Of a stretch of DNA of 18,304 bases, positions 7,760 to 18,304 are shown piece by piece (the stretch's first letter is position 1; every line of letters starts with the position of its first letter). Origin of the DNA: a virus (taxonomy: Duplodnaviria > Heunggongvirae > Uroviricota > Caudoviricetes); IMG/VR virus record IMGVR_UViG_2874933748_000006; one strand, written 5' to 3'. The notes beneath the pieces were generated by a model that made no database searches, was not told the origin of the DNA, and saw only the letters and a program-made list of their open reading frames with translations. Made by a program: the position numbers and the translations under genes.

Positions 7760-9151
7760 ATGGACTTACCTTCTTTACCTTCTCTTTCTTCACTCTTTTC
7801 TGCATCTTCAGGTATCAATTGGCGCGATAATCTTTACGACGCTTCATTTCGTGGCGTTCCGTTTTCGGTGGAGAGCGACGAGGGTTCGTTCGGACGCCGC
7901 GTTCAGGTCCATGAATACCCAAACCGTGACAAACCGTACACGGAAGATCTCGGGCGTGCCACGCGACGGCTGACGATTAATGCGTATCTCGTTGGTGATG
8001 ATTACGCAGAGCAGCGCGACAGGCTGATTACAGCGATTGAAACCGCCGGGCCGGGGACGCTGATCCATCCGCAGTTCGGTGAAATGCAGGGCTGTATTGA
8101 CGGGCAGGTGACCGTTTCTCACTCCGGCACTGAAGGCCGTATGTGCCGGGTTTCATTTCAGTTTGTTGAGAGCGGGGAACTGTCATTTCCGGTCGCCGGA
8201 GCTGCAACCGCCAGAAAACTGGAGGAGTCGTCCGTATTCCTGGATGAGTTGATTGAAGACATGTTCGGCGATTTTGATCTCGCGGGAATACCGGACTTTA
8301 TTCAGAACGATGTTATTGCCCGGACGACCGATATGCTGGGAACCGTTCAGACAGCTTTCAAAATGGTTAATTCGGCTGTTTCTGCCGGAGCGAGACTACT
8401 GCAGGGCGATTTATCCGTCATTCTGATGCCGCCGTCGGTTGCCAGTGATTTTGTGCATACGTTGCAGGATACCTGGCGGGCCGGAACCCGGCTGGTGGAT
8501 AACACACAGGATCTGGTGCAGTCCATAACGACAATGTCCGGCATTACGCTGGACCCAGGACTGGCACCGCGTGCGGTGTGGCCCACAGATTCCGCATCGG
8601 TTATCAGGCAAAAACAGCAGACAAACCTTGTGGCTGCTGTCATCCGGACGACGGCAATCAGCGAAGCCACAAGGGCGGTCACTTCACTGCCACAACCCGG
8701 AAGCCTGGTGAAAAATCAGCAGGCGGTTGTGGCTGTTGGTGGTTCCACTGAACGTCAGTCCGATATTATTCACGTTTCTCATCCGGCACTTGACAGCGTG
8801 GCAGCCAGCACAGGACAGGATGAGAGAGCGCAACCACCCACGCGGGAAAATCTCACCATCATACGCAAATCGCTGAACGCGGCGATTGAACAGGAGCTCA
8901 GGCGTACGGCGGATGACAGGCTGTTTTTTCAGCTGACGTCATTACGTACAGAACTGAACCGGGATATTCAGGCGCGTCTGGTTCAGACGGAGGAAACCGC
9001 AGAGCGAACGCCAGCGGAAGTTCTGCCTGCGCTTGTTCTGGCTGCGTCATGGTACGACGATGCGTCCCGTGAAACTGATATCCTGGATCGAAATGCCATC
9101 TCTCATCCGGGCTTTGTTCCGGTCAGGGCATTAAGGGTACCCGTCAGATGA
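7760..9151 (+). CDS. Phage DNA circulation protein (Mu gpN-like)
   Basis: ATG at 7760 preceded by GGAG. The N-terminal region (FRGVPFSVESDEGSFGRRVQVHEYPNRDKPYTEDLGRATRRLTINAYLVGDDY) matches the DNA circularisation protein family. Position after the tape measure fits. Confidence 0.8.
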   Translation: MDLPSLPSLSSLFSASSGINWRDNLYDASFRGVPFSVESDEGSFGRRVQVHEYPNRDKPYTEDLGRATRRLTINAYLVGDDYAEQRDRLITAIETAGPGTLIHPQFGEMQGCIDGQVTVSHSGTEGRMCRVSFQFVESGELSFPVAGAATARKLEESSVFLDELIEDMFGDFDLAGIPDFIQNDVIARTTDMLGTVQTAFKMVNSAVSAGARLLQGDLSVILMPPSVASDFVHTLQDTWRAGTRLVDNTQDLVQSITTMSGITLDPGLAPRAVWPTDSASVIRQKQQTNLVAAVIRTTAISEATRAVTSLPQPGSLVKNQQAVVAVGGSTERQSDIIHVSHPALDSVAASTGQDERAQPPTRENLTIIRKSLNAAIEQELRRTADDRLFFQLTSLRTELNRDIQARLVQTEETAERTPAEVLPALVLAASWYDDASRETDILDRNAISHPGFVPVRALRVPVR

Positions 9152-10236
9152 ATGATACCGTTTTACTTCGGGTTTCCGGTCGCGAATGGGGCGGCTGGAC
9201 ATCCGTCCGTATCAGTGCGGGCATTAACCGTATTGCCCGGGATTTTAATGTTGCCATTACCACCCGCTGGCCCGGAAGCCGGGATTATCAACCCCGGATA
9301 AAAAATGGTGAGCTGGTTGAAGTGCTTATCGGGGATGAGCCTGTGCTCACCGGATATGTGGAGGCACTACCGCTTCGTTATGACGCCAGCAGCGTCAGCA
9401 TGGGAATTGTCGGGCGAAGCAAAACAGCCGATCTGGTTGACTGCTCTGCTTTGCCACTCCAGCAGAGCGGAAAAAACCTGCTCAGAATAGTCAGTGAACT
9501 GGCTGCGCCATTTGGCATCACCGTTGTTGATGCTGGCGTGCCGCAGACAGCGGTGATTGATGCCCAGCCGGAACACGGCGAAACCGTTGCCGATTGTCTT
9601 AACCGGTTACTGGGGCAGGTTCAGACGCTGGCTTATGACGATGAATGCGGGCGACTGGTTCTGGGAAAACCCGGAACAGGTAAAGCGGCGACGGCGCTGG
9701 TGCTGGTGCTGGTGCTGGGAGAGAATATTCTTTCCTGTGACACGGAAAGAAGCATCAGAGAGCGGTTTTCTGAATATCAGGTCAGTGGGCAGCGCCCGGG
9801 CAACGACGATGATTTTGGTGAGGCCACCATTGCCGCAATACGTCAGACCATTCAGGACAGTGGCGTGACCCGTTATCGCCCTTTGTTGATTCAGCAGTCA
9901 GGCACAGCAACGACAGCAACCTGTAAGGCCCGTTGTGAATTTGAAGCGCGCCAACGGGCTGCGCTTACCCGTGAGACAACATATACGGTTCAGGGCTGGC
10001 GGCAGGGCAGTGGCGCGTTATGGCGTCCGGGGTTATCTGTCATCGTTTTCGACCCGCTGAATAATTTTGATAATGATGAACTGGTGATCGCAGAAGTTAC
10101 CTATAACCAGGACGACCGGGGCACGACGACTGAATTACGGGTTGGCCCGGCAGATGCTTATCTCCCCGAGCCTGTTACCGCCAGGAAGAAAAAAATGTTG
10201 AGGAGGATTTCTGATGAACGGGTTTTCTCTTCGTAA
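9148..10236 (+). CDS. Mu gpP-like tail/baseplate hub protein
   Basis: A 362-aa ORF whose start overlaps the previous stop (ATGA), in the gene-P position between the N-like gene and the baseplate V-like gene. Confidence 0.7.
   Translation: MNDTVLLRVSGREWGGWTSVRISAGINRIARDFNVAITTRWPGSRDYQPRIKNGELVEVLIGDEPVLTGYVEALPLRYDASSVSMGIVGRSKTADLVDCSALPLQQSGKNLLRIVSELAAPFGITVVDAGVPQTAVIDAQPEHGETVADCLNRLLGQVQTLAYDDECGRLVLGKPGTGKAATALVLVLVLGENILSCDTERSIRERFSEYQVSGQRPGNDDDFGEATIAAIRQTIQDSGVTRYRPLLIQQSGTATTATCKARCEFEARQRAALTRETTYTVQGWRQGSGALWRPGLSVIVFDPLNNFDNDELVIAEVTYNQDDRGTTTELRVGPADAYLPEPVTARKKKMLRRISDERVFSS
9696..9718. repeat. In-frame hexanucleotide tandem repeat (GCTGGT)x3 plus GCTGG inside the gpP-like gene
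   Basis: Direct reading of gctggtgctggtgctggtgctgg. It encodes the LVLVLVL stretch in ATALVLVLVLGENIL. Confidence 0.9.
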
Positions 10237-10747
10237 TCTGATTTCCCGGGCTGTCATCACGGCGGTGGATTCCGCCAGAAAGTGTCAGTCTGTAGGGTTG
10301 AAAATGATAGCCGGAGATCAGAAACAACACGTTGAGCACCTTGAACCTTATGGTTTTACATCTGCCGCACAGAACGGTGCTGAGGGCGTTGCTTTATTTC
10401 CGGCGGGCGATCGTTCTCATGGTGTGGTTGTGGTCGTGGCTGACAGACGTTACCGGCTGAAAGGACTGAAACGTGGGGAAGTGGCGCTTTATGACGATCT
10501 GGGACAGTCCGTTGTCCTGACCCGTTCCGGTATTGTGGTGGACGGGGCCGGGAAGGCCATAATTTTTAAAAACGCGCCTAAAGCGCGCTTTGAAATGCCA
10601 GTCGAATCCACCGCCGATATTACTGACAATTGCGACAGTGGCGGACTCAGCATGCAGCAAATGCGGCAGGCCTACAATGCCCACAAACATACCGAAAATG
10701 GTGATGGTGGCGGGATCACTGACACGCCGGATCAACCGATGGGCTGA
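10214..10747 (+). CDS. Phage baseplate assembly protein V (Mu gp45-like)
   Basis: ATG at 10214 preceded by GAGGAGG. The motifs AVITAVDSA, VEHLEPYGFTS and ALFPAGDRSHGVVVVVADRRYRL are characteristic of the baseplate V / gp45 family. Confidence 0.8.
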   Translation: MNGFSLRNLISRAVITAVDSARKCQSVGLKMIAGDQKQHVEHLEPYGFTSAAQNGAEGVALFPAGDRSHGVVVVVADRRYRLKGLKRGEVALYDDLGQSVVLTRSGIVVDGAGKAIIFKNAPKARFEMPVESTADITDNCDSGGLSMQQMRQAYNAHKHTENGDGGGITDTPDQPMG

Positions 10748-10752
10748 AAATC

Positions 10753-11163
10753 ATGATGATTAATGTTAACGGGCGACCCGTGTCGACCGGGGCTTCGATC
10801 GACCTTCTGACGCGTGCTGTGATTATTTCGCTTTTTACATGGCGGCGTGCCGGGCGTGATGATGCACCACGGATATTTGGATGGTGGGGGGATACCTGGC
10901 CTGCGGTTCAGAATGATCGCACGGGGTCGCGTTTGTATCTGTTGCGACGCAGCAAGCTGACAAATAAAACCCCGCAGCTTGCCAGAGATTATGTCCGTGA
11001 GGCGCTGGCGTGGATGGTGGAGGATGGTGTTGCTTCCCGTCTTGATATTAACGCTGTCCGGACCGGGACAGACTCGCTGGCACTTGCCATTACCATTTAC
11101 CAGCGTGACGGCAATATTCACAACATTATTTTTGATGATATCTGGAGTGAACTGAATGGCTGA
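10753..11163 (+). CDS. Mu gp46-like baseplate protein
   Basis: A 136-aa ORF with the GWWGD and SRLYLL motifs typical of the phage GP46 family, in the expected position between V and J. Confidence 0.75.
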   Translation: MMINVNGRPVSTGASIDLLTRAVIISLFTWRRAGRDDAPRIFGWWGDTWPAVQNDRTGSRLYLLRRSKLTNKTPQLARDYVREALAWMVEDGVASRLDINAVRTGTDSLALAITIYQRDGNIHNIIFDDIWSELNG

Positions 11164-11740
11164 CAGTCAGTTTTATCGCCCCGGCCTCCCGCAACTTATT
11201 TCTATGATCCGGAGCGATTTATTAACCCGCTTTGAGCAGGATACGCTGCTTCGTCGTATGGATGCGGAAGTGTATGCCCGTGTACAGGCTGCAGCCGTAC
11301 ACACGTTGTACGGGTATATCGATTATCTTGCCAGAAATCTGTTACCGGACGTGTGTGATGAAGACTGGCTGTACCGGCACGCCAGAATCAAACGCTGCCC
11401 GCGAAAAGAAGCGGTGGCAGCCCGGGGATTTGTGCGCTGGGATGGCGTAGAGGGGACGCCGGTATTGCCAGCGGGAACGCAGATCCAGCGTGATAATCAG
11501 GTGACCTTTACCACGACGGCGACGGTGACCGCAGCCGATGGTCTTCTCCGGGTGCCTGTTGTGGCAGACGAACCGGGATCGGCGGGGAATACGGATGATG
11601 GTATTGCCATGCAACTGGGAACACCCGTCAGTGGTCTGCCGTCCACAGGGTACGCTGACACCATTACAGACGGTGAAGATATTGAAAATCTGGAAATATG
11701 GCGTGCCCGCGTTATGGAACGTTATTACTACATTCCACAG

Positions 11741-11749
11741 GGGGGCGCA
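11741..11749. repeat. IS1 target-site duplication (GGGGGCGCA), left copy
   Basis: A 9-bp direct repeat identical to 12518-12526, flanking IS1 copy 2. Confidence 0.9.
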
Positions 11750-11764
11750 GGTAATGACTCCAAC

Positions 11765-12268
11765 TTATTGATAGTGTTTTATGTTCAGATAATGCCCGAT
11801 GACTTTGTCATGCAGCTCCACCGATTTTGAGAACGACAGCGACTTCCGTCCCAGCCGTGCCAGGTGCTGCCTCAGATTCAGGTTATGCCGCTCAATTCGC
11901 TGCGTATATCGCTTGCTGATTACGTGCAGCTTTCCCTTCAGGCGGGATTCATACAGCGGCCAGCCATCCGTCATCCATATCACCACGTCAAAGGGTGACA
12001 GCAGGCTCATAAGACGCCCCAGCGTCGCCATAGTGCGTTCACCGAATACGTGCGCAACAACCGTCTTCCGGAGACTGTCATACGCGTAAAACAGCCAGCG
12101 CTGGCGCGATTTAGCCCCGACATAGCCCCACTGTTCGTCCATTTCCGCGCAGACGATGACGTCACTGCCCGGCTGTATGCGCGAGGTTACCGACTGCGGC
12201 CTGAGTTTTTTAAGTGACGTAAAATCGTGTTGAGGCCAACGCCCATAATGCGTGCAGTTGCCCGGCAT
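11765..12268 (-). CDS. insB: IS1 InsB frame (expressed as InsAB' by -1 frameshift at 12205-12211)
   Basis: An intact 167-aa ORF in the -1 frame relative to insA, overlapping its 3' end, as in canonical IS1. Confidence 0.9.
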
Positions 12269-12462
12269 CCAACGCCATTCATGGCCATATCAATGATTTT
12301 CTGGTGCGTACCGGGTTGAGAAGCGGTGTAAGTGAACTGCAGTTGCCATGTTTTACGGCAGTGAGAGCAGAGATAGCGCTGATGTCCGGCAGTGCTTTTG
12401 CCGTTACGCACCACCCCGTCAGTAGCTGAACAGGAGGGACAGCTGATAGAAACAGAAGCCAC
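12187..12462 (-). CDS. insA: IS1 InsA
   Basis: A 91-aa ORF identical in translation to insA of copy 1. Confidence 0.95.
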
Positions 12463-12517
12463 TGGAGCACCTCAAAAACACCATCATACACTAAATCAGT
12501 AAGTTGGCAGCATCACC

Positions 12518-12526
12518 GGGGGCGCA
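12518..12526. repeat. IS1 target-site duplication (GGGGGCGCA), right copy
   Basis: Identical to 11741-11749. Confidence 0.9.
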
Positions 12527-13014
12527 GACCCTGATTATGTTATCTGGGCGAAAGAAGTTCAGGGTATTAACCGTGCATGGACTTTCAGACACTGGAAAGG
12601 CACTGGAACGGTTGGCGTGATGGTGGCGACAAACGATCCGGAACGCCCGGCCCCGGATGAAAGCGTGATTAACGCAGTCAGGGACCACATCCTTCCTCTG
12701 GCACCTGTTGCCGGAAGCGGATTGTATGTATTCGGTGCCACAGAAAAAGTCATCCCGATGACGATTGCATTATCGAAAGACACACCGCAGATCAGGACTG
12801 CAATAAAAGCAGAGCTGAATGCACTGATGTTACGGGATGGTGTGCCAGAGGGGCGTATGTATCTGTCCAGAATCAGTGAGGCCATCAGTTTGTCTGCTGG
12901 TGAAGTGGCCCACCGGTTAATCGTCCCTTCATCGGATATTGACCTGGGGGAGACCGAGCTTCCGGTGCTCGGCGAGATCACCTGGCAGGCTTATGACCCG
13001 GCAAGGAGTAAATA

Positions 13015-13605
13015 ATGGATTCGTTACAGGATGATTATACAAAGCTGCTGTACGGACTGATGCCGCCGGGGCCTGCATGGTCAGATACCGACGGTGTACT
13101 TGACGGTCTGGCACCATCGCTTGTGCGTGTTCACCAGCGGGCTGATGAACTGGTGATTGAAATCGATCCCGGTCAGTCCACAGAGCTGATTGAACGTTAT
13201 GAAGAATTGTATGGTTTACCTGATTCCTGTTCCCCTGTCGGAACCCAGACATTACGCCAGCGTCAGCAACGTCTTGAAGCAAAAGCCAATGTGGCTGGTG
13301 GCATAAATGAGCAGTTCTTCCTGGATCAGCTTGAGGCGCTGGGATATACCGGCGTAACGATCGAACAGTTCCAGCACTTGGATGCAAGCCCCGATCCGGA
13401 ATGGGGAGATCGCTGGCGTTATTTCTGGCGTGTGACGTTGCCGATGGATGCCGGTGCTCAGTGGCAGACATGCACGGACGCCTGCAACACACCGATCCGG
13501 ACGTGGGGGGATACGGTTGCGGAGTGCGTGATTAATAAATTATGTCCGTCACACACCGTCGTTTTATTTTCCTATCCAGATGAGGATGAAGATGCACAGG
13601 ATTGA
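13015..13605 (+). CDS. Mu gp48-like tail protein (DUF2313 / P2 gpI-like)
   Basis: A 196-aa ORF whose start overlaps the J stop (TAATG). The N-terminal LLYGLMPPGPAW motif and position after J fit the gp48 family. Confidence 0.7.
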   Translation: MDSLQDDYTKLLYGLMPPGPAWSDTDGVLDGLAPSLVRVHQRADELVIEIDPGQSTELIERYEELYGLPDSCSPVGTQTLRQRQQRLEAKANVAGGINEQFFLDQLEALGYTGVTIEQFQHLDASPDPEWGDRWRYFWRVTLPMDAGAQWQTCTDACNTPIRTWGDTVAECVINKLCPSHTVVLFSYPDEDEDAQD

Positions 13606-14632
13606 TACGCTGACTGCGGTAAAAGATAAGTTTGGTCCGGGTAAGAACGGATTTACTGACGGAAATCTTCGCACAGGACGTCTTGCTACCTGGCTGAACA
13701 GTGCCATGTGGAATGCCATTCAGGAGGAAATCTGTGGTGTCATTGAGAAGGCCGGGATAGAACTGAATAAAGAAGAACACGACCAGCTATATAAGGCTAT
13801 ATTATTGCTGGTGGGCGGTGCAATTAACGAAGAGGCATTGCTGATAAAAAATAACCTTTCGGATGTGGAAGACAGGGATGAGGCTGTTGAAAACCTCGGA
13901 TTAAAACCCACGGTGGATAAGGCAAAAAATGCCGTTCAGCGTGATGGCGACACCATGACCGGAGAGCTGAAAATCCGTGGTGTTAATGCGCTGAGGATTT
14001 TCAACGAAGCTTTTGGCCTGATTTTTCGTCGTTCGGAAGAGTGCCTGCACCTTATTCCCACCAGTGAAGGTCAGGGGGAAAATGGCGATATTGGTCCCCT
14101 GCGCCCGTTCACCATTAATCTGCGGACGGGTGAAATATCCATGTCGCATAAAGTGTCTGTTGGCGGTGGTTCGCAGGTCAATGGTGCGCTGGGTATCGGC
14201 GTTCAGAACGCCCTGGGGGGGAATTCAATTGTTCTTGGTGATAATGACACCGGATTCAAACAGAATGGTGATGGCCTGCTGGATGTTTATGCCAATAGCG
14301 TGCATGTGTTGCGTTTTCAGAGTGGCAGTATCCAGAGTAATAAAGCTGTAAACGTTACAGGACGGGTAACACCGTCAGACTACGGAAACTTTGATGCCCG
14401 TTACCAGCAGCGAAATGGTGGCGTGCAGGATGTGCGGTATGGTTATGAAATGTATTACACCCCCGGCAGTAACACCGTTTCGTGGACATTTCGCTCACCT
14501 TCGGGACACGGGCTGTCAGGGATATCGATATCGGATACCGGCCGTAACTCAGCGGATAACGTCAACGGCGTGTATTACCGACCGCTGCAAAAACTGATTA
14601 ATGGCACCTGGTATAACGTAGCGAGTATTTAA
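13592..14632 (+). CDS. Tail fibre protein with a P2 gpH-like C-terminal domain
   Basis: The motifs AVQRDGDTMTGEL, NALGGNSIVLGDNDTGFKQNGDGLLDVYANS and the C-terminal YRPLQKLINGTWYNVASI resemble the C-terminal part of P2 H-type tail fibres as I recall them. Start chosen at ATG 13592 (GAGGA upstream); in-frame ATGs also exist at 13580 and 13586. Confidence 0.75.
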   Translation: MHRIDTLTAVKDKFGPGKNGFTDGNLRTGRLATWLNSAMWNAIQEEICGVIEKAGIELNKEEHDQLYKAILLLVGGAINEEALLIKNNLSDVEDRDEAVENLGLKPTVDKAKNAVQRDGDTMTGELKIRGVNALRIFNEAFGLIFRRSEECLHLIPTSEGQGENGDIGPLRPFTINLRTGEISMSHKVSVGGGSQVNGALGIGVQNALGGNSIVLGDNDTGFKQNGDGLLDVYANSVHVLRFQSGSIQSNKAVNVTGRVTPSDYGNFDARYQQRNGGVQDVRYGYEMYYTPGSNTVSWTFRSPSGHGLSGISISDTGRNSADNVNGVYYRPLQKLINGTWYNVASI

Positions 14633-14634
14633 CA

Positions 14635-15180
14635 ATGTTGCATTTAAAAAATATTACGGCAGGTAATCCGAAAACCGCGGAATAATATCAGCTGACAAAA
14701 CAGTATGATGTCACCTGGCTTTTTTCGGAAGACGGCAAAAACTGGTATGAAGAACAGAAGAACTTTGCCAGTGACACCATAAAAATGGTTTACACCGGAG
14801 ACGGGCGCGTGGTGTGGGTCGGTAAGGATGTGACAGGCATTGAACCCCGTAACGCCAGTGTTATTGAAGTTCCTGATATTACCGCCAACCGCCGCATTAC
14901 CGCGCCGGGTTACTGGTTTTACCGCAATGATGAATTTGTCTTTGACTACAGACTCAAAGCGGAAGATGAGCGTGATGCCCTTCTGGCTCAGGTCAGTGCC
15001 CGGACAGGGGAATGGGAAGAAGACCTGCTGCTGGGGCTAATCAGCGACGAAGACCGGGAAAAACTGAAAGCGTACCGTATTTACGCGAAATCGCTGCAGG
15101 CGATGGATTTCAGCACCATCACTGATAAATCCTCATATAACGCCATTGAATGGTCCGTCTCTCCGGAAGGTTCTTCCTGA
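14635..15180 (+). pseudogene. Tail fibre assembly protein (Tfa) with an in-frame premature TAA at 14683-14685
   Basis: ATG at 14635 gives MLHLKNITAGNPKTAE, then TAA, then the frame continues YQLTKQYDVTWLFSEDGKNWYEEQ... to a C-terminus with the Tfa signature (KAYRIYAKSLQAMDFS...IEWSVSPE). The first in-frame ATG after the stop is at 14785. Confidence 0.7.
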
Positions 15181-15203
15181 TTTAATTTATCGCGAGAAAA
15201 ACT

Positions 15204-16472
15204 ATGTCTGTAGTGATATCAGGTGCGCTGACTGATGGCGCAGGCATCCCCATGTCCGGATGCCAGATTATTCTGAAATCCCGTGTAAACACCTCAGAAG
15301 TGGTGATGCGTACCAGGGCTGATGTAGTGACCGGAAATAACGGTGAATATTCGTTTGAGGCACAGGTCGGAAAATATTGCGTGTATCTGAAACGGGACTG
15401 GCGCGACGAGTACTGTGTTGGCGACATTGCTGTATACGACGACTCAAAGCCCGGCACGCTGAATGACTTTCTGATTGCTCCTGATGAGGGCGACCTGAAA
15501 CCGGATGTCGTCAAACGCTTTGAGGAAATGGTGGCGCAGGCGCAGCAGAGCGCCGGGGCCGCAGCCGGAAACGCACAGCAGACGGCGCAGGATGTGGCGG
15601 CAGCCGCAGGTTATGCCCGCGCAGCAGAGCAGGCCAAAAATGACATTGATGCTGCGCTGACCGGCACTCTGAAAACGGCTAACCATCTGTCTGAAATCGC
15701 AGCAGCAGGCGAAAAGGCACAACAGAAGTCCCGGGATAATCTGGGGCTGAAAAGTGCGGCCACGATGGAAGCACAGAGCGACATTTACGACCGGACAAAA
15801 GGCCGTCTGGCGATACCCGGCGCATTCGGCTTTGGGTGTGCTTTTCTGCCTGAAGATGTTATCCGTTTTGACACTAAGAGTGATTTCCTGGCCTGGGTAA
15901 GGAATGCGCTGCCAGGTGAATATTCCGTTGCTGGCCCCTACGACATCATCATACCCGACACACGGTTTGAAGGGGTGCTCAGCATCCGGTGGACTGATGC
16001 ACGCCCTGAGACAACAGAACCGAGGTACAGAGCCAAATCCCTTACTTTTTACGGCATTAACGGCCCCATTTATCACACCCGCTACTGCTACTGGCCCATA
16101 TCCAGACTGACTGGCTGGGTGAAAATAAATATAACCACAGAAGATATTATTTACAGAATCGTGGCGAGCTCTGTCTGCAACAGATGGGGAGACCCTGACA
16201 TTGGCGGGCTGATTATTGCTGCGTACCAGGGAGAAGCTGACGGTGATAAAGTCATCAGACTTGTCAGGGGGCAGTCATACAGAGGCTCACGACTGGGACC
16301 GGTGGGGATTTCAGTGCCCAGTACTCCCACCGGAACGTATATAGCATCCCCACAATTTTTCATTACGGGATGTTCAGAGCATTCATTACCGGGGTCATAT
16401 AGCGCCCTGTCCGGGGTGCCGGATGCTCATGTCTCTGGCGCAATGCCCGGGCTTTTTATTCGCACATCGTGA
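15204..16472 (+). CDS. Side tail fibre protein with a lambda Stf-like N-terminal domain
   Basis: The N-terminus (MSVVISGALTDGAGIPMSGCQIILKSRVNTSEVV...VYDDSKPGTLNDFL) closely matches the lambda Stf / prophage tail-fibre N-terminal domain as I recall it, followed by an Ala/Gln-rich segment and a distinct C-terminal domain. Confidence 0.75.
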   Translation: MSVVISGALTDGAGIPMSGCQIILKSRVNTSEVVMRTRADVVTGNNGEYSFEAQVGKYCVYLKRDWRDEYCVGDIAVYDDSKPGTLNDFLIAPDEGDLKPDVVKRFEEMVAQAQQSAGAAAGNAQQTAQDVAAAAGYARAAEQAKNDIDAALTGTLKTANHLSEIAAAGEKAQQKSRDNLGLKSAATMEAQSDIYDRTKGRLAIPGAFGFGCAFLPEDVIRFDTKSDFLAWVRNALPGEYSVAGPYDIIIPDTRFEGVLSIRWTDARPETTEPRYRAKSLTFYGINGPIYHTRYCYWPISRLTGWVKINITTEDIIYRIVASSVCNRWGDPDIGGLIIAAYQGEADGDKVIRLVRGQSYRGSRLGPVGISVPSTPTGTYIASPQFFITGCSEHSLPGSYSALSGVPDAHVSGAMPGLFIRTS

Positions 16473-16482
16473 GGAATGCACC

Positions 16483-17046
16483 GTGGAAATTAAAAAAATC
16501 ATTAATCCCCGTTATACCGAAAGTGGCGCAGTAGACTGTGACGTTTTTTTTGACGACAGGGACCAGGCAGTCCCCTACACAGCCACCGCTGATGATGTCG
16601 CACCGACGGGTCAGCGAATCTGGCAGGAACTGCAAAGTGGCAAATGGGGTGAGATAGCCCCATTCACTGTGACACCAGAAATGCTGGAAGCGGCCAGAGA
16701 GGCCAGACGTCAGGAAATTGAAGCATGGCGCACAGAACAGGAGGCGAAGCCGTTCACGTTTGAATGGAATGGTCGTATCTGGAATGCTGGCCCCGACTCA
16801 CTGGGCCGCCTGTCCCCGGTAGTCATGCTGGCAAAATCTGTCACAGCACAAACGCATATGGCGTGGGGTGATGCCGATAATCAGCAGGTGAAACTGTCGA
16901 TGCCGGAACTGGAAGAACTGGCGGCAGCAATGGTGCAGGCGCAGGTCGATCGCAACGATGAGATTTATCGCCGTCAGCGTGAAATGAAAGAGGAGCTGAG
17001 TGGTCTGGAGGATTTGGGAACAATTAGAGCGTTTGATGTTACGTAA
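16483..17046 (+). CDS. Putative tail fibre chaperone / assembly protein (DUF4376-like, family uncertain)
   Basis: GTG at 16483 is preceded by GAGGA (the upstream ATG at 16423 lies inside the fibre gene). The gene sits immediately downstream of the fibre gene and lacks the classical Tfa C-terminal motif. Family assignment is from memory and not verified. Confidence 0.45.
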   Translation: MEIKKIINPRYTESGAVDCDVFFDDRDQAVPYTATADDVAPTGQRIWQELQSGKWGEIAPFTVTPEMLEAAREARRQEIEAWRTEQEAKPFTFEWNGRIWNAGPDSLGRLSPVVMLAKSVTAQTHMAWGDADNQQVKLSMPELEELAAAMVQAQVDRNDEIYRRQREMKEELSGLEDLGTIRAFDVT

Positions 17047-17095
17047 TTGGTAAGCTGCATCGTGTTAAATTGTTACCCTTATTTACAACTAGAAA

Positions 17096-17126
17096 AGCCT
17101 CTGACTTCATAATCAGAGGCTTTTTT
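17096..17126 (+). terminator. Rho-independent terminator closing the tail-fibre operon (possibly bidirectional)
   Basis: Perfect 9-bp stem agcctctga (17096-17104), 8-nt loop, tcagaggct (17113-17121), then a T run to 17126. An A-rich tract on the other side would give a U-rich tail for transcripts arriving from ssrA. Confidence 0.8.
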
Positions 17127-17244
17127 GAAATGCACGTGCATTTTGCGTGTATATTTTTGTCTTTTTCTGGTCCGCTTACTGTCTGGTCAGTGTCCGTAAG
17201 TGACTGTTTTTATAGTCTCTGTCCGGTTGCAGTCCTGTCAAAAG

Positions 17245-17607
17245 TGGTGGAGCTGGCGGGAGTTGAACCCGCGTCCGAAATTCCTACATCCTCGGTACTA
17301 CATGCTTAGTCAGTCTTTACATTCGCTTGCCAGCTGCGGACGGACACGCCACTAACAAACTAGCCTGATTAAGTTTTAACGCTTCAACCCCAGGCAGGGC
17401 TTCCACGCGATCTCTTTTGGGTTTGACCTCTCTTGATCCCCGTCCTAAGAGCGGAGGCTAGGGAGAGAGGGCTCTAAGCAGGTTATTAAGCTGCTAAAGC
17501 GTAGTTTTCGTCGTTTGCGACTATTTTTTGCGGCTTTTTACGAGGCCAACCGCCCCTCGGCATGCACCTTGGGTTTCGCAAATCCCGTCGAATCCAGAAT
17601 CAGCCCC
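17245..17607 (-). ncRNA. ssrA: tmRNA (SsrA), 363 nt
   Basis: The reverse complement starts GGGGCTGATTCTGGATTCGACGGG and ends GGTTCAACTCCCGCCAGCTCCACCA. It contains the tag reading frame GCAAACGACGAAAACTACGCTTTAGCAGCTTAA (ANDENYALAA), matching E. coli tmRNA from memory. Confidence 0.95.
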
Positions 17608-17821: not shown

Positions 17822-18304
17822 TTAACGGTGGGCGTTTTTCATGATACGTGCTTTATCCACCTGCCATTCGCGTTCTTTGATATCTGAACGTTTATCGTGC
17901 TGTTTTTTACCTTTGGCGACGCCGATTTTCACTTTGCACCAGGCATTTTTCCAGTACAGGGAGAGCGCCACTACGGTATAGCCTTCTCGATTGACGCGAC
18001 CGTACAATGAGTCCAGTTCGCGCTGGTTGAGAAGTAACTTGCGGGTACGGGTAGGATCGCACACCACATGCGTGGAGGCCACGGCCATTGGCGTGATGTT
18101 AGCGCCAAACAGAAATGCCTCTCCGTCACGCAGAAGGACGTAGCTGTCGCTGATATTGGCTTTTCCTGCGCGCAGGGATTTAACTTCCCAGCCTTGCAGG
18201 GCAAGTCCCGCTTCGAACTCTTCTTCGATAAAGTATTCGTGACGGGCGCGCTTGTTAAGCGCGATGGTCGCTGAACCAGGTTTATGTGCTTTTTTCTTCG
18301 TCAT
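17822..18304 (-). CDS. smpB: SsrA-binding protein SmpB
   Basis: A 160-aa ORF beginning [72 protein letters not shown], matching enterobacterial SmpB. The start codon is the last three bases of the window. Confidence 0.95.

Follow-up and report, generated by a model that had tools for sequence, protein, structure and literature searches.

The window analysed here, a stretch of 18,304 nucleotides that is 99.9% identical to Shigella sonnei Ss046 (CP000038), carries the tail and tail-fibre genes of a prophage, followed by a complete ssrA gene and its native upstream neighbour. Two callers, ARAGORN and Rfam (RF00023), agree on a tmRNA gene at 17245–17607 on the minus strand; the Rfam match scores 295.8 bits, spans model positions 1–374 of 374 and is not truncated, and the encoded tag peptide is ANDENYALAA. 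Over the stretch compared, the gene is identical to ssrA of Escherichia coli STEC308 (90 of 90 positions). The smpB gene was called at 17822–18304, also on the minus strand. The 3′ end of the tmRNA (CCA), at 17245, points to the prophage side, where 198 bp (17047–17244) separate it from the stop codon of the last phage open reading frame (ORF). The first gene beyond this spacer is a convergent gene of the tail-fibre module. The first-pass annotation had placed an intact ssrA about 200 bp from the last tail-fibre-module gene with no integrase between the two, and both statements hold: the gap is too short to leave room for an integrase, and neither an integrase ORF nor the remnant of an integrase reading frame was found in the spacer. 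The arrangement of P4 and CP4-57-type elements, with an integrase gene (int) a few hundred base pairs downstream of the intact tDNA and in the same orientation, is therefore not what is found at this junction. No second copy of the ssrA 3′ end was detected in the whole window.

The last prophage gene (16423–17046, plus strand) encodes a tail-fibre-associated protein that matches Pfam DUF4376 (E = 1.5e-16) and PHROG 1141, 'tail fiber protein' (E = 3e-88). The record of the Stx2e phage phiP27 labels its homologue a putative tail fibre assembly protein, and the label 'chaperone' for the product is a matter of annotation only. Directly ahead of it lies a phage_tail_N tail-fibre gene (15204–16472; 422 amino acids), the last of a group of tail-fibre genes at 13580–16472 on the plus strand that also encodes a 350-amino-acid fibre protein and a Caudo_TAP assembly protein (14785–15180); these assignments draw on Pfam, PHROG and identity to phiP27. 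The contractile-tail and baseplate module precedes this group (2147–13605, plus strand). It was delimited by Pfam matches and by 97% nucleotide identity to a prophage at ssrA in STEC308, and encodes a sheath, a tube, a tape measure, a DNA-circularisation protein and homologues of gpP, gp45, gp46, baseplate J and gp48. Sheath, tube, tape measure, circularisation protein, a Mu gp44–48-like baseplate and fibres are collinear, as in a phiP27-like contractile-tail module.

Two IS1 copies interrupt the tail and baseplate module. The first, at 6564–7331, was recognized by Pfam IS1 domains and by a 9-bp overlap of the flanking phage blocks, that is, a target duplication (37800–37808 in L001, the STEC308 locus). 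The second, at 11750–12518, lies in the baseplate J gene, where the flanking blocks overlap by about 10 bp, again a target duplication. It cuts the gene into two parts, 11156–11830 and 12617–13015. With baseplate J split in this way the tail module cannot be functional, and a functional tailocin, which we had considered as a candidate, was rejected on these grounds. From 12518 to 17244, the tail-fibre region contains no further insertion sequence. Within the baseplate gpP-like gene, a perfect hexanucleotide repeat, GCTGGT × 3.8 (9696–9718), encodes LVLVLV. The product of this gene is 362, 360 or 350 amino acids long across S. sonnei assemblies, suggesting slippage in repeat number.

The head-proximal side of the prophage is bounded by further insertion sequences. 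Flank comparison identified positions 1–436 (plus strand) as the right end of an IS4 copy inserted in the portal gene, the other side of which is the bamD terminator in S. sonnei. The left-most phage DNA in the window, at 437–888 (plus strand), consists of the portal 3′ end and the 5′ part of the prohead-protease gene (PHROG 80). An IS600 (889–2146, plus strand) then joins the cut protease gene to the start of the sheath gene, at a point 19 bp upstream of it, as mapped against STEC308. Missing at the IS600 relative to STEC308 are about 3.5 kb, comprising the rest of the protease gene and the genes for the major capsid, connector and tail-terminator proteins, a loss consistent with an IS-associated adjacent deletion. 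The 452 bp at 437–888 share 99.8% identity with the e14-like prophage that E. coli RM7190 carries at icd and 83% with STEC308, whereas the adjoining tail module is 97% identical to STEC308 and only 63–76% identical to the e14-like phage of RM7190. Either the original phage was a mosaic or the fragment is of separate origin, and this piece of head-gene DNA may thus not belong to the same original prophage as the tail module.

At the other end of the prophage, the terminal 26 nucleotides of the tmRNA (17245–17270) have the sequence TGGTGGAGCTGGCGGGAGTTGAACCC and comprise the CCA, the discriminator, the 3′ strand of the acceptor stem, the 3′ strand of the T-stem, the T-loop and part of the 5′ strand of the T-stem. 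This 26-bp core, which is present once in the window, has exactly the sequence of the 26-bp attP annotated in the Cronobacter phage phiES15 and of the 25-bp attP published for phage phiNP, and a copy lies by the integrase gene in STEC308. Homology to phage DNA extends beyond the core. In a megablast search of the tail-fibre end against phage genomes, positions 17131–17244 aligned at 91% identity with the final 114 bp of the phiES15 record, which is circular and starts with attP; these 114 bp directly precede the attP core. With the core as anchor, the left arm aligns without gaps up to the first core base and agrees with phiES15 at 121 and with STEC308 at 141 of 150 positions. The window thus has a homologous phage arm adjoining the core on the late-gene side, as in the integration modules of the phiES15 and phiNP type. 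Because the arm is in register with the phage attP arm up to the core, the spacer is an attachment-site arm (P′ arm) that was joined by recombination within the core, and not a secondary junction. The same junction between arm and ssrA was found in 516 of 5,426 complete E. coli genomes (about 9.5%), counted with a 240-bp probe across arm and ssrA that had to be covered to at least 80%; the full 198-bp spacer was found in 47 E. coli genomes.

The P′ arm carries a GTGCATTTTGCGTGTATATT block, which also occurs in the int-side arm, together with several GTCC motifs. A block of about 24 bp, GTGCAYTTTRCGTRYATATT, stands in direct orientation in both attachment-site arms of three phages (window 17133–17160; L001 6245–6275; L010 88–115), and in the reconstructed attP each arm shows GTGCAYTTTRCGTRYATATT followed by GTCC motifs. 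Judged by sequence, these blocks and motifs are plausible candidates for arm-type integrase-binding sites.

Elements integrated into tRNA or tmRNA genes have a recognized signature, with the intact target gene at one end, a displaced 3′ fragment in direct orientation at the other and the integrase inside (Islander; PMC4383910). The window holds the first part of it, a regenerated, full-length tmRNA gene abutting phage DNA, and an intact relative shows the whole. E. coli STEC308 harbours an intact, 41.8-kb Stx2e prophage at ssrA in the same orientation, with the order smpB, ssrA, 198-bp arm, DUF4376 gene, tail fibres, baseplate, tail, head, terminase, lysis, stx2e, early genes, xis and int. Its int and xis lie 41.8 kb from the intact ssrA, by the displaced fragment, a 27-nucleotide repeat of the ssrA 3′ end located 132 bp past the int stop codon. 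The integrase consists of Arm-DNA-bind_2 (DUF3596) and Phage_integrase domains, and the excisionase is encoded by a small ORF that overlaps the int start; both proteins are 87% identical to their phiES15 counterparts. The STEC308 locus also holds a P4-type integrase (Arm-DNA-bind_3 and Phage_int_M; L001 4762–6184), which begins 167 bp past the displaced ssrA fragment and is transcribed away from it, so that two elements with opposite int placement stand in tandem at one ssrA. In the Stx2e operon of this otherwise intact prophage, an IS2 is inserted between stxA2 and stxB2 (L001 19044–21620).

To place this arrangement in its family, we surveyed 66 loci that encode integrases of the STEC308 type, one genome per species, from Enterobacterales, Pasteurellaceae, Aeromonas and Gilliamella, and searched them for the tmRNA 3′ 26-mer with up to six mismatches. 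The 26-mer was found downstream of int and on the same strand at all 66 loci, at a distance of 65–182 bp in 55 of them and 1.5–3 kb in the other 11. An intact tmRNA gene within the 3-kb flanks, as called by ARAGORN, was absent at 65 of the 66 loci; the sole exception, L069, has an int without the N-terminal 150 residues. Transcription of int towards the core, on the side away from the intact gene, was seen in STEC308, phiES15, phiNP, the 66 loci and a second prophage in the S. sonnei-like strain CP032523.1. On which side of attP int is found depends on the family and is not universal. About 12 of the 66 displaced ssrA fragments (L013, L015, L016, L024, L026, L028, L038, L040, L041, L043, L053 and L073) carry GCCAGCCCACCAA in place of GCCAGCTCCACCA and so lack one base close to the 3′ end. 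The Islander study mentions that a deletion located 3 bp upstream of the discriminator recurs in displaced tDNA fragments (PMC4383910), and the deletion in GCCAGCCCACCAA may be the same one.

Taken together, positions 17047–17270 very probably represent a native recombinant junction, still intact, that formed when a temperate phage integrated site-specifically into the ssrA 3′ end. We are likewise highly confident that this phage combined a phiP27-like contractile tail with an integrase that has a DUF3596 (Arm-DNA-bind_2) N-terminal domain. A tail-fibre end next to an intact ssrA is an ordinary attachment junction and no anomaly. In phiES15/STEC308-type phages, attP sits between the end of the late operon, with its tail-fibre genes, and the xis–int pair, int is transcribed towards attP in a lambda-like manner, and the ssrA-like core in attP points to the tail-fibre side. 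Recombination in the 26-bp core then joins the 5′ body of the bacterial ssrA to the phage copy of the core, behind which come the P′ arm, the terminator of the late operon and the tail-fibre genes. A complete ssrA is thereby rebuilt, and the original 3′ end is displaced by about 40 kb, to a position directly downstream of int. Later decay in S. sonnei comprised the two IS1 insertions in the tail module, the IS600-associated deletion of head genes, and a rearrangement, joined by the IS4 in the portal gene, that moved portal′–tail–ssrA–smpB–ratA–yfjF, inverted, to the bamD–raiA spacer.

These results revise several expectations of the first-pass annotation. That an integrase usually lies next to the reconstituted gene is correct for islands of the P4/CP4-57 type but does not apply to lambda-organised phages such as this prophage. 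The annotation had also suggested an integrase at the far end combined with an unusual attP position; a far-end integrase is indeed the rule in this common family, part of which has been studied by experiment (STEC308, phiES15, phiNP and the 66 loci), but the position of attP is classical. A loss of the integrase-proximal part was correctly anticipated insofar as the int half has been lost or separated here, but this occurred at the head end, with IS4 and IS600, and not at ssrA. The view of the layout as anomalous falls away, because close relatives carry, in a known configuration, a distal partial repeat of the ssrA 3′ end with an integrase adjacent to it.

The gene order in S. sonnei is clpB, yfiH, rluD, bamD, IS4, the window, ratA, yfjF, IS4, raiA, pheL and pheA. 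By comparison, bamD and raiA are adjacent in E. coli and lie 18.5 kb from ssrA on its smpB side. The two IS4 copies of S. sonnei are direct repeats (L009 6842–8267; L083 14017–15442). Their outer flanks, left of copy one and right of copy two, both carry the 14-bp bamD-terminator sequence CAGCCCTTGAGCTG, and their inner flanks are the portal gene and the 3′ end of yfjF, respectively. From the direct orientation of the copies, the split CAGCCCTTGAGCTG and the inner flanks it follows that a 20.6-kb block including one IS4 (portal′, tail module, ssrA, smpB, ratA and yfjF) was relocated, inverted, into an old IS4 site in the bamD–raiA spacer. Recombination among three IS4 copies is the most likely route. 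A single inversion between bamD–raiA and the portal gene, which we also considered, is disproved by the right flank, as the block is bounded by two direct IS4 copies with a split target duplication. The junction between ssrA and the tail-fibre end travelled unchanged inside the relocated block.

The displaced ssrA fragment and the int end of the S. sonnei prophage were found neither in the window nor in the matching S. sonnei loci, which reach about 8–10 kb beyond it. In these loci, precomputed Pfam calls over about 8–10 kb on each side included no tyrosine-recombinase domain, with the exception of CP032523.1. Among the members listed for the three closest clusters of STEC308 integrase homologues (40 of 192 for the main cluster), none bears a Shigella name. 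We infer that the S. sonnei prophage once had the same int end; the half with the integrase either has been deleted or is expected next to bamE, on the far side of a third IS4. A PHAST table for S. sonnei 75/02 contains three phiP27-like regions (PMC5447701).

CP032523.1 shares the IS1 sites of the window, to which it is 99.9% identical as far as position 17282. In this strain (L084 12042–14860), what comes after the arm and core is not the body of ssrA but the int-side arm, two small ORFs, and the int and xis genes of a second phage of the same family. In the resulting tandem array, a displaced ssrA fragment and the int gene of the new phage now stand next to the old tail-fibre end, indicating that a later integration at ssrA pushed the old remnant outward. 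CP032523.1 is a natural confirmation that both the site and the orientation rule still operate.

Among the alternatives to a native junction from a phage with its own integrase, the one that survives best accepts the junction as native but holds that the prophage never encoded an integrase, being either a tail-only, tailocin-like element or a satellite that used the integrase of another phage. The window does hold only tail genes and the 452-bp head fragment, whose closest relative differs from that of the tail module. However, a complete prophage with its own int and xis has a tail module 97% identical to this one, the truncation points coincide with the ends of IS600 and IS4, and the split of baseplate J by IS1 shows that the module is not maintained as a functional unit. 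We therefore regard this explanation as very unlikely. A second explanation, already raised in the first-pass annotation, is that an IS-mediated or other illegitimate event placed an unrelated tail module beside ssrA, which would make the junction secondary. The window does hold four insertion sequences (IS4, IS600 and two IS1), and IS4 and IS600 have clearly rearranged the prophage on its head-proximal side. Yet the nearest insertion sequence ends at 12518, 4.7 kb from ssrA, and STEC308 and other E. coli prophages at ssrA are collinear with the window across the 198-bp spacer. The inner 114 bp of the spacer agree with the attP arm of phiES15, exactly in register with the core, and the junction stayed intact when the segment that extends from the tail module through yfjF moved as a single block, all of which makes such an event exceedingly improbable. 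There is next to no chance that int originally stood between ssrA and the tail-fibre genes, as in CP4-57 or P4-like elements, and was then deleted: P4-type integrases do lie directly downstream of tDNA, as does the one 167 bp past the displaced fragment in STEC308, and a tRNA-then-int layout is frequent (Panis et al., PMC2951348), but intact relatives have the same arm and DUF4376 gene at ssrA with int at the far end, 65 of the 66 loci of the cognate family lack an intact tmRNA near int, and the spacer holds no remnant of an integrase reading frame.

Returning to the spacer of the native junction, its outer part contains a stem–loop followed by a run of T residues (17093–17126, plus strand). 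Folding of the spacer predicts a 14-bp stem for this hairpin, and the z-score of the whole 198 nucleotides is −4.0; a simple terminator scan did not list it, and the assignment relies on sequence and fold. The hairpin is most simply explained as the intrinsic terminator of the late (tail-fibre) operon, and it may also stop ssrA transcripts arriving from the other strand. Because int is transcribed towards attP and the stem–loop lies just past the core on the late-gene side, the hairpin could act like lambda sib. The phage arm might then serve two functions, as a sib-like element for int in the circular phage and as the 3′ trailer and terminator of the host ssrA precursor in the lysogen, a proposal that we consider unlikely on present evidence. 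Speculatively, a sib-like hairpin would terminate int transcripts or make them unstable while the phage genome is circular, and would lose its coupling to int once the phage has integrated. If the dual function were real, tmRNA maturation in about 10% of E. coli strains would depend on a sequence supplied by a phage.

The relevance of these observations is mostly limited to annotation. In lambda-organised phages, the absence of an integrase beside a tRNA or tmRNA gene is no sign of rearrangement, and the far end is where prophage-boundary calling should look for an integrase and a displaced piece of the gene. The segment 17131–17270 can serve as a marker for this attachment-site family, which occurs at ssrA in about one in ten complete E. 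coli genomes. In S. sonnei, the locus adds one more IS4-bounded relocation, in which ssrA and smpB were moved together with a dead prophage tail module, and this is relevant to synteny-based comparisons.

The organisation of this prophage family resembles that of phage lambda, in which attP separates int from the tail-fibre end of the late operon, and xis and int are transcribed towards attP. In the lambda prophage, int and the tail fibres occupy opposite ends (attL–int–xis … J–stf–tfa–b region–attR). Lambda differs in that it integrates between gal and bio and not into an RNA gene, and in that its integrase has a different arm-binding domain. In E. coli K-12, CP4-57 carries intA next to ssrA. 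Islands of the CP4-57/P4 type likewise use the ssrA 3′ end as attB and restore the gene, but their integrase (Arm-DNA-bind_3 and Phage_int_M) begins 167–200 bp downstream of the tDNA or its fragment and is transcribed away from it, an arrangement absent at the window junction. This order of tRNA followed by int is a frequent one among tRNA-adjacent integrases and has been contrasted with that of lambda (Panis et al., PMC2951348).

Among individual phages, phiP27 (AJ298298) has a tail and tail-fibre module that is about 89% identical to that of the window at the nucleotide level, and its record ends shortly past the tail-fibre assembly gene. It inserts at yecE (reviewed in PMC8065619), which means that its integration module differs. 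Compared with phiP27-like Stx2e prophages, the S. sonnei remnant lacks stx, lysis, replication and integration genes in the window. The Citrobacter rodentium phage phiNP (OR565852; Magaziner et al. 2019, PMC6456863) shares a contractile tail, a DUF3596-type integrase and the same core sequence, and experiments in E. coli K-12 demonstrated its integration into the last 25 bp of ssrA, at the 3′ end (PMC6456863). In its record, a first core is followed by four cargo genes, the tail-fibre assembly gene, the remainder of the genome, xis, int, an ATPase gene and a second core, which gives a prophage ordered as in STEC308: intact ssrA, late/tail-fibre end, rest of the genome, xis, int and displaced core. 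The differences are an integrase that is 67% identical to that of STEC308, the four cargo genes (ddi, hicAB and sat) between the core and the tail-fibre assembly gene, and the ATPase gene between int and the core. In phiES15 of Cronobacter sakazakii (NC_018454), which is recorded as UV-induced, attP likewise lies between the tail-fibre end and int, with int transcribed towards attP. Its structural genes, by contrast, are unrelated to those of the window and annotated as non-contractile, with a major tail protein, a long tape measure and no annotated sheath. The window and phiES15 share the integration module only, which is ordinary phage mosaicism, and the layout itself is already known from phiNP, phiES15 and the lambda type of organisation.
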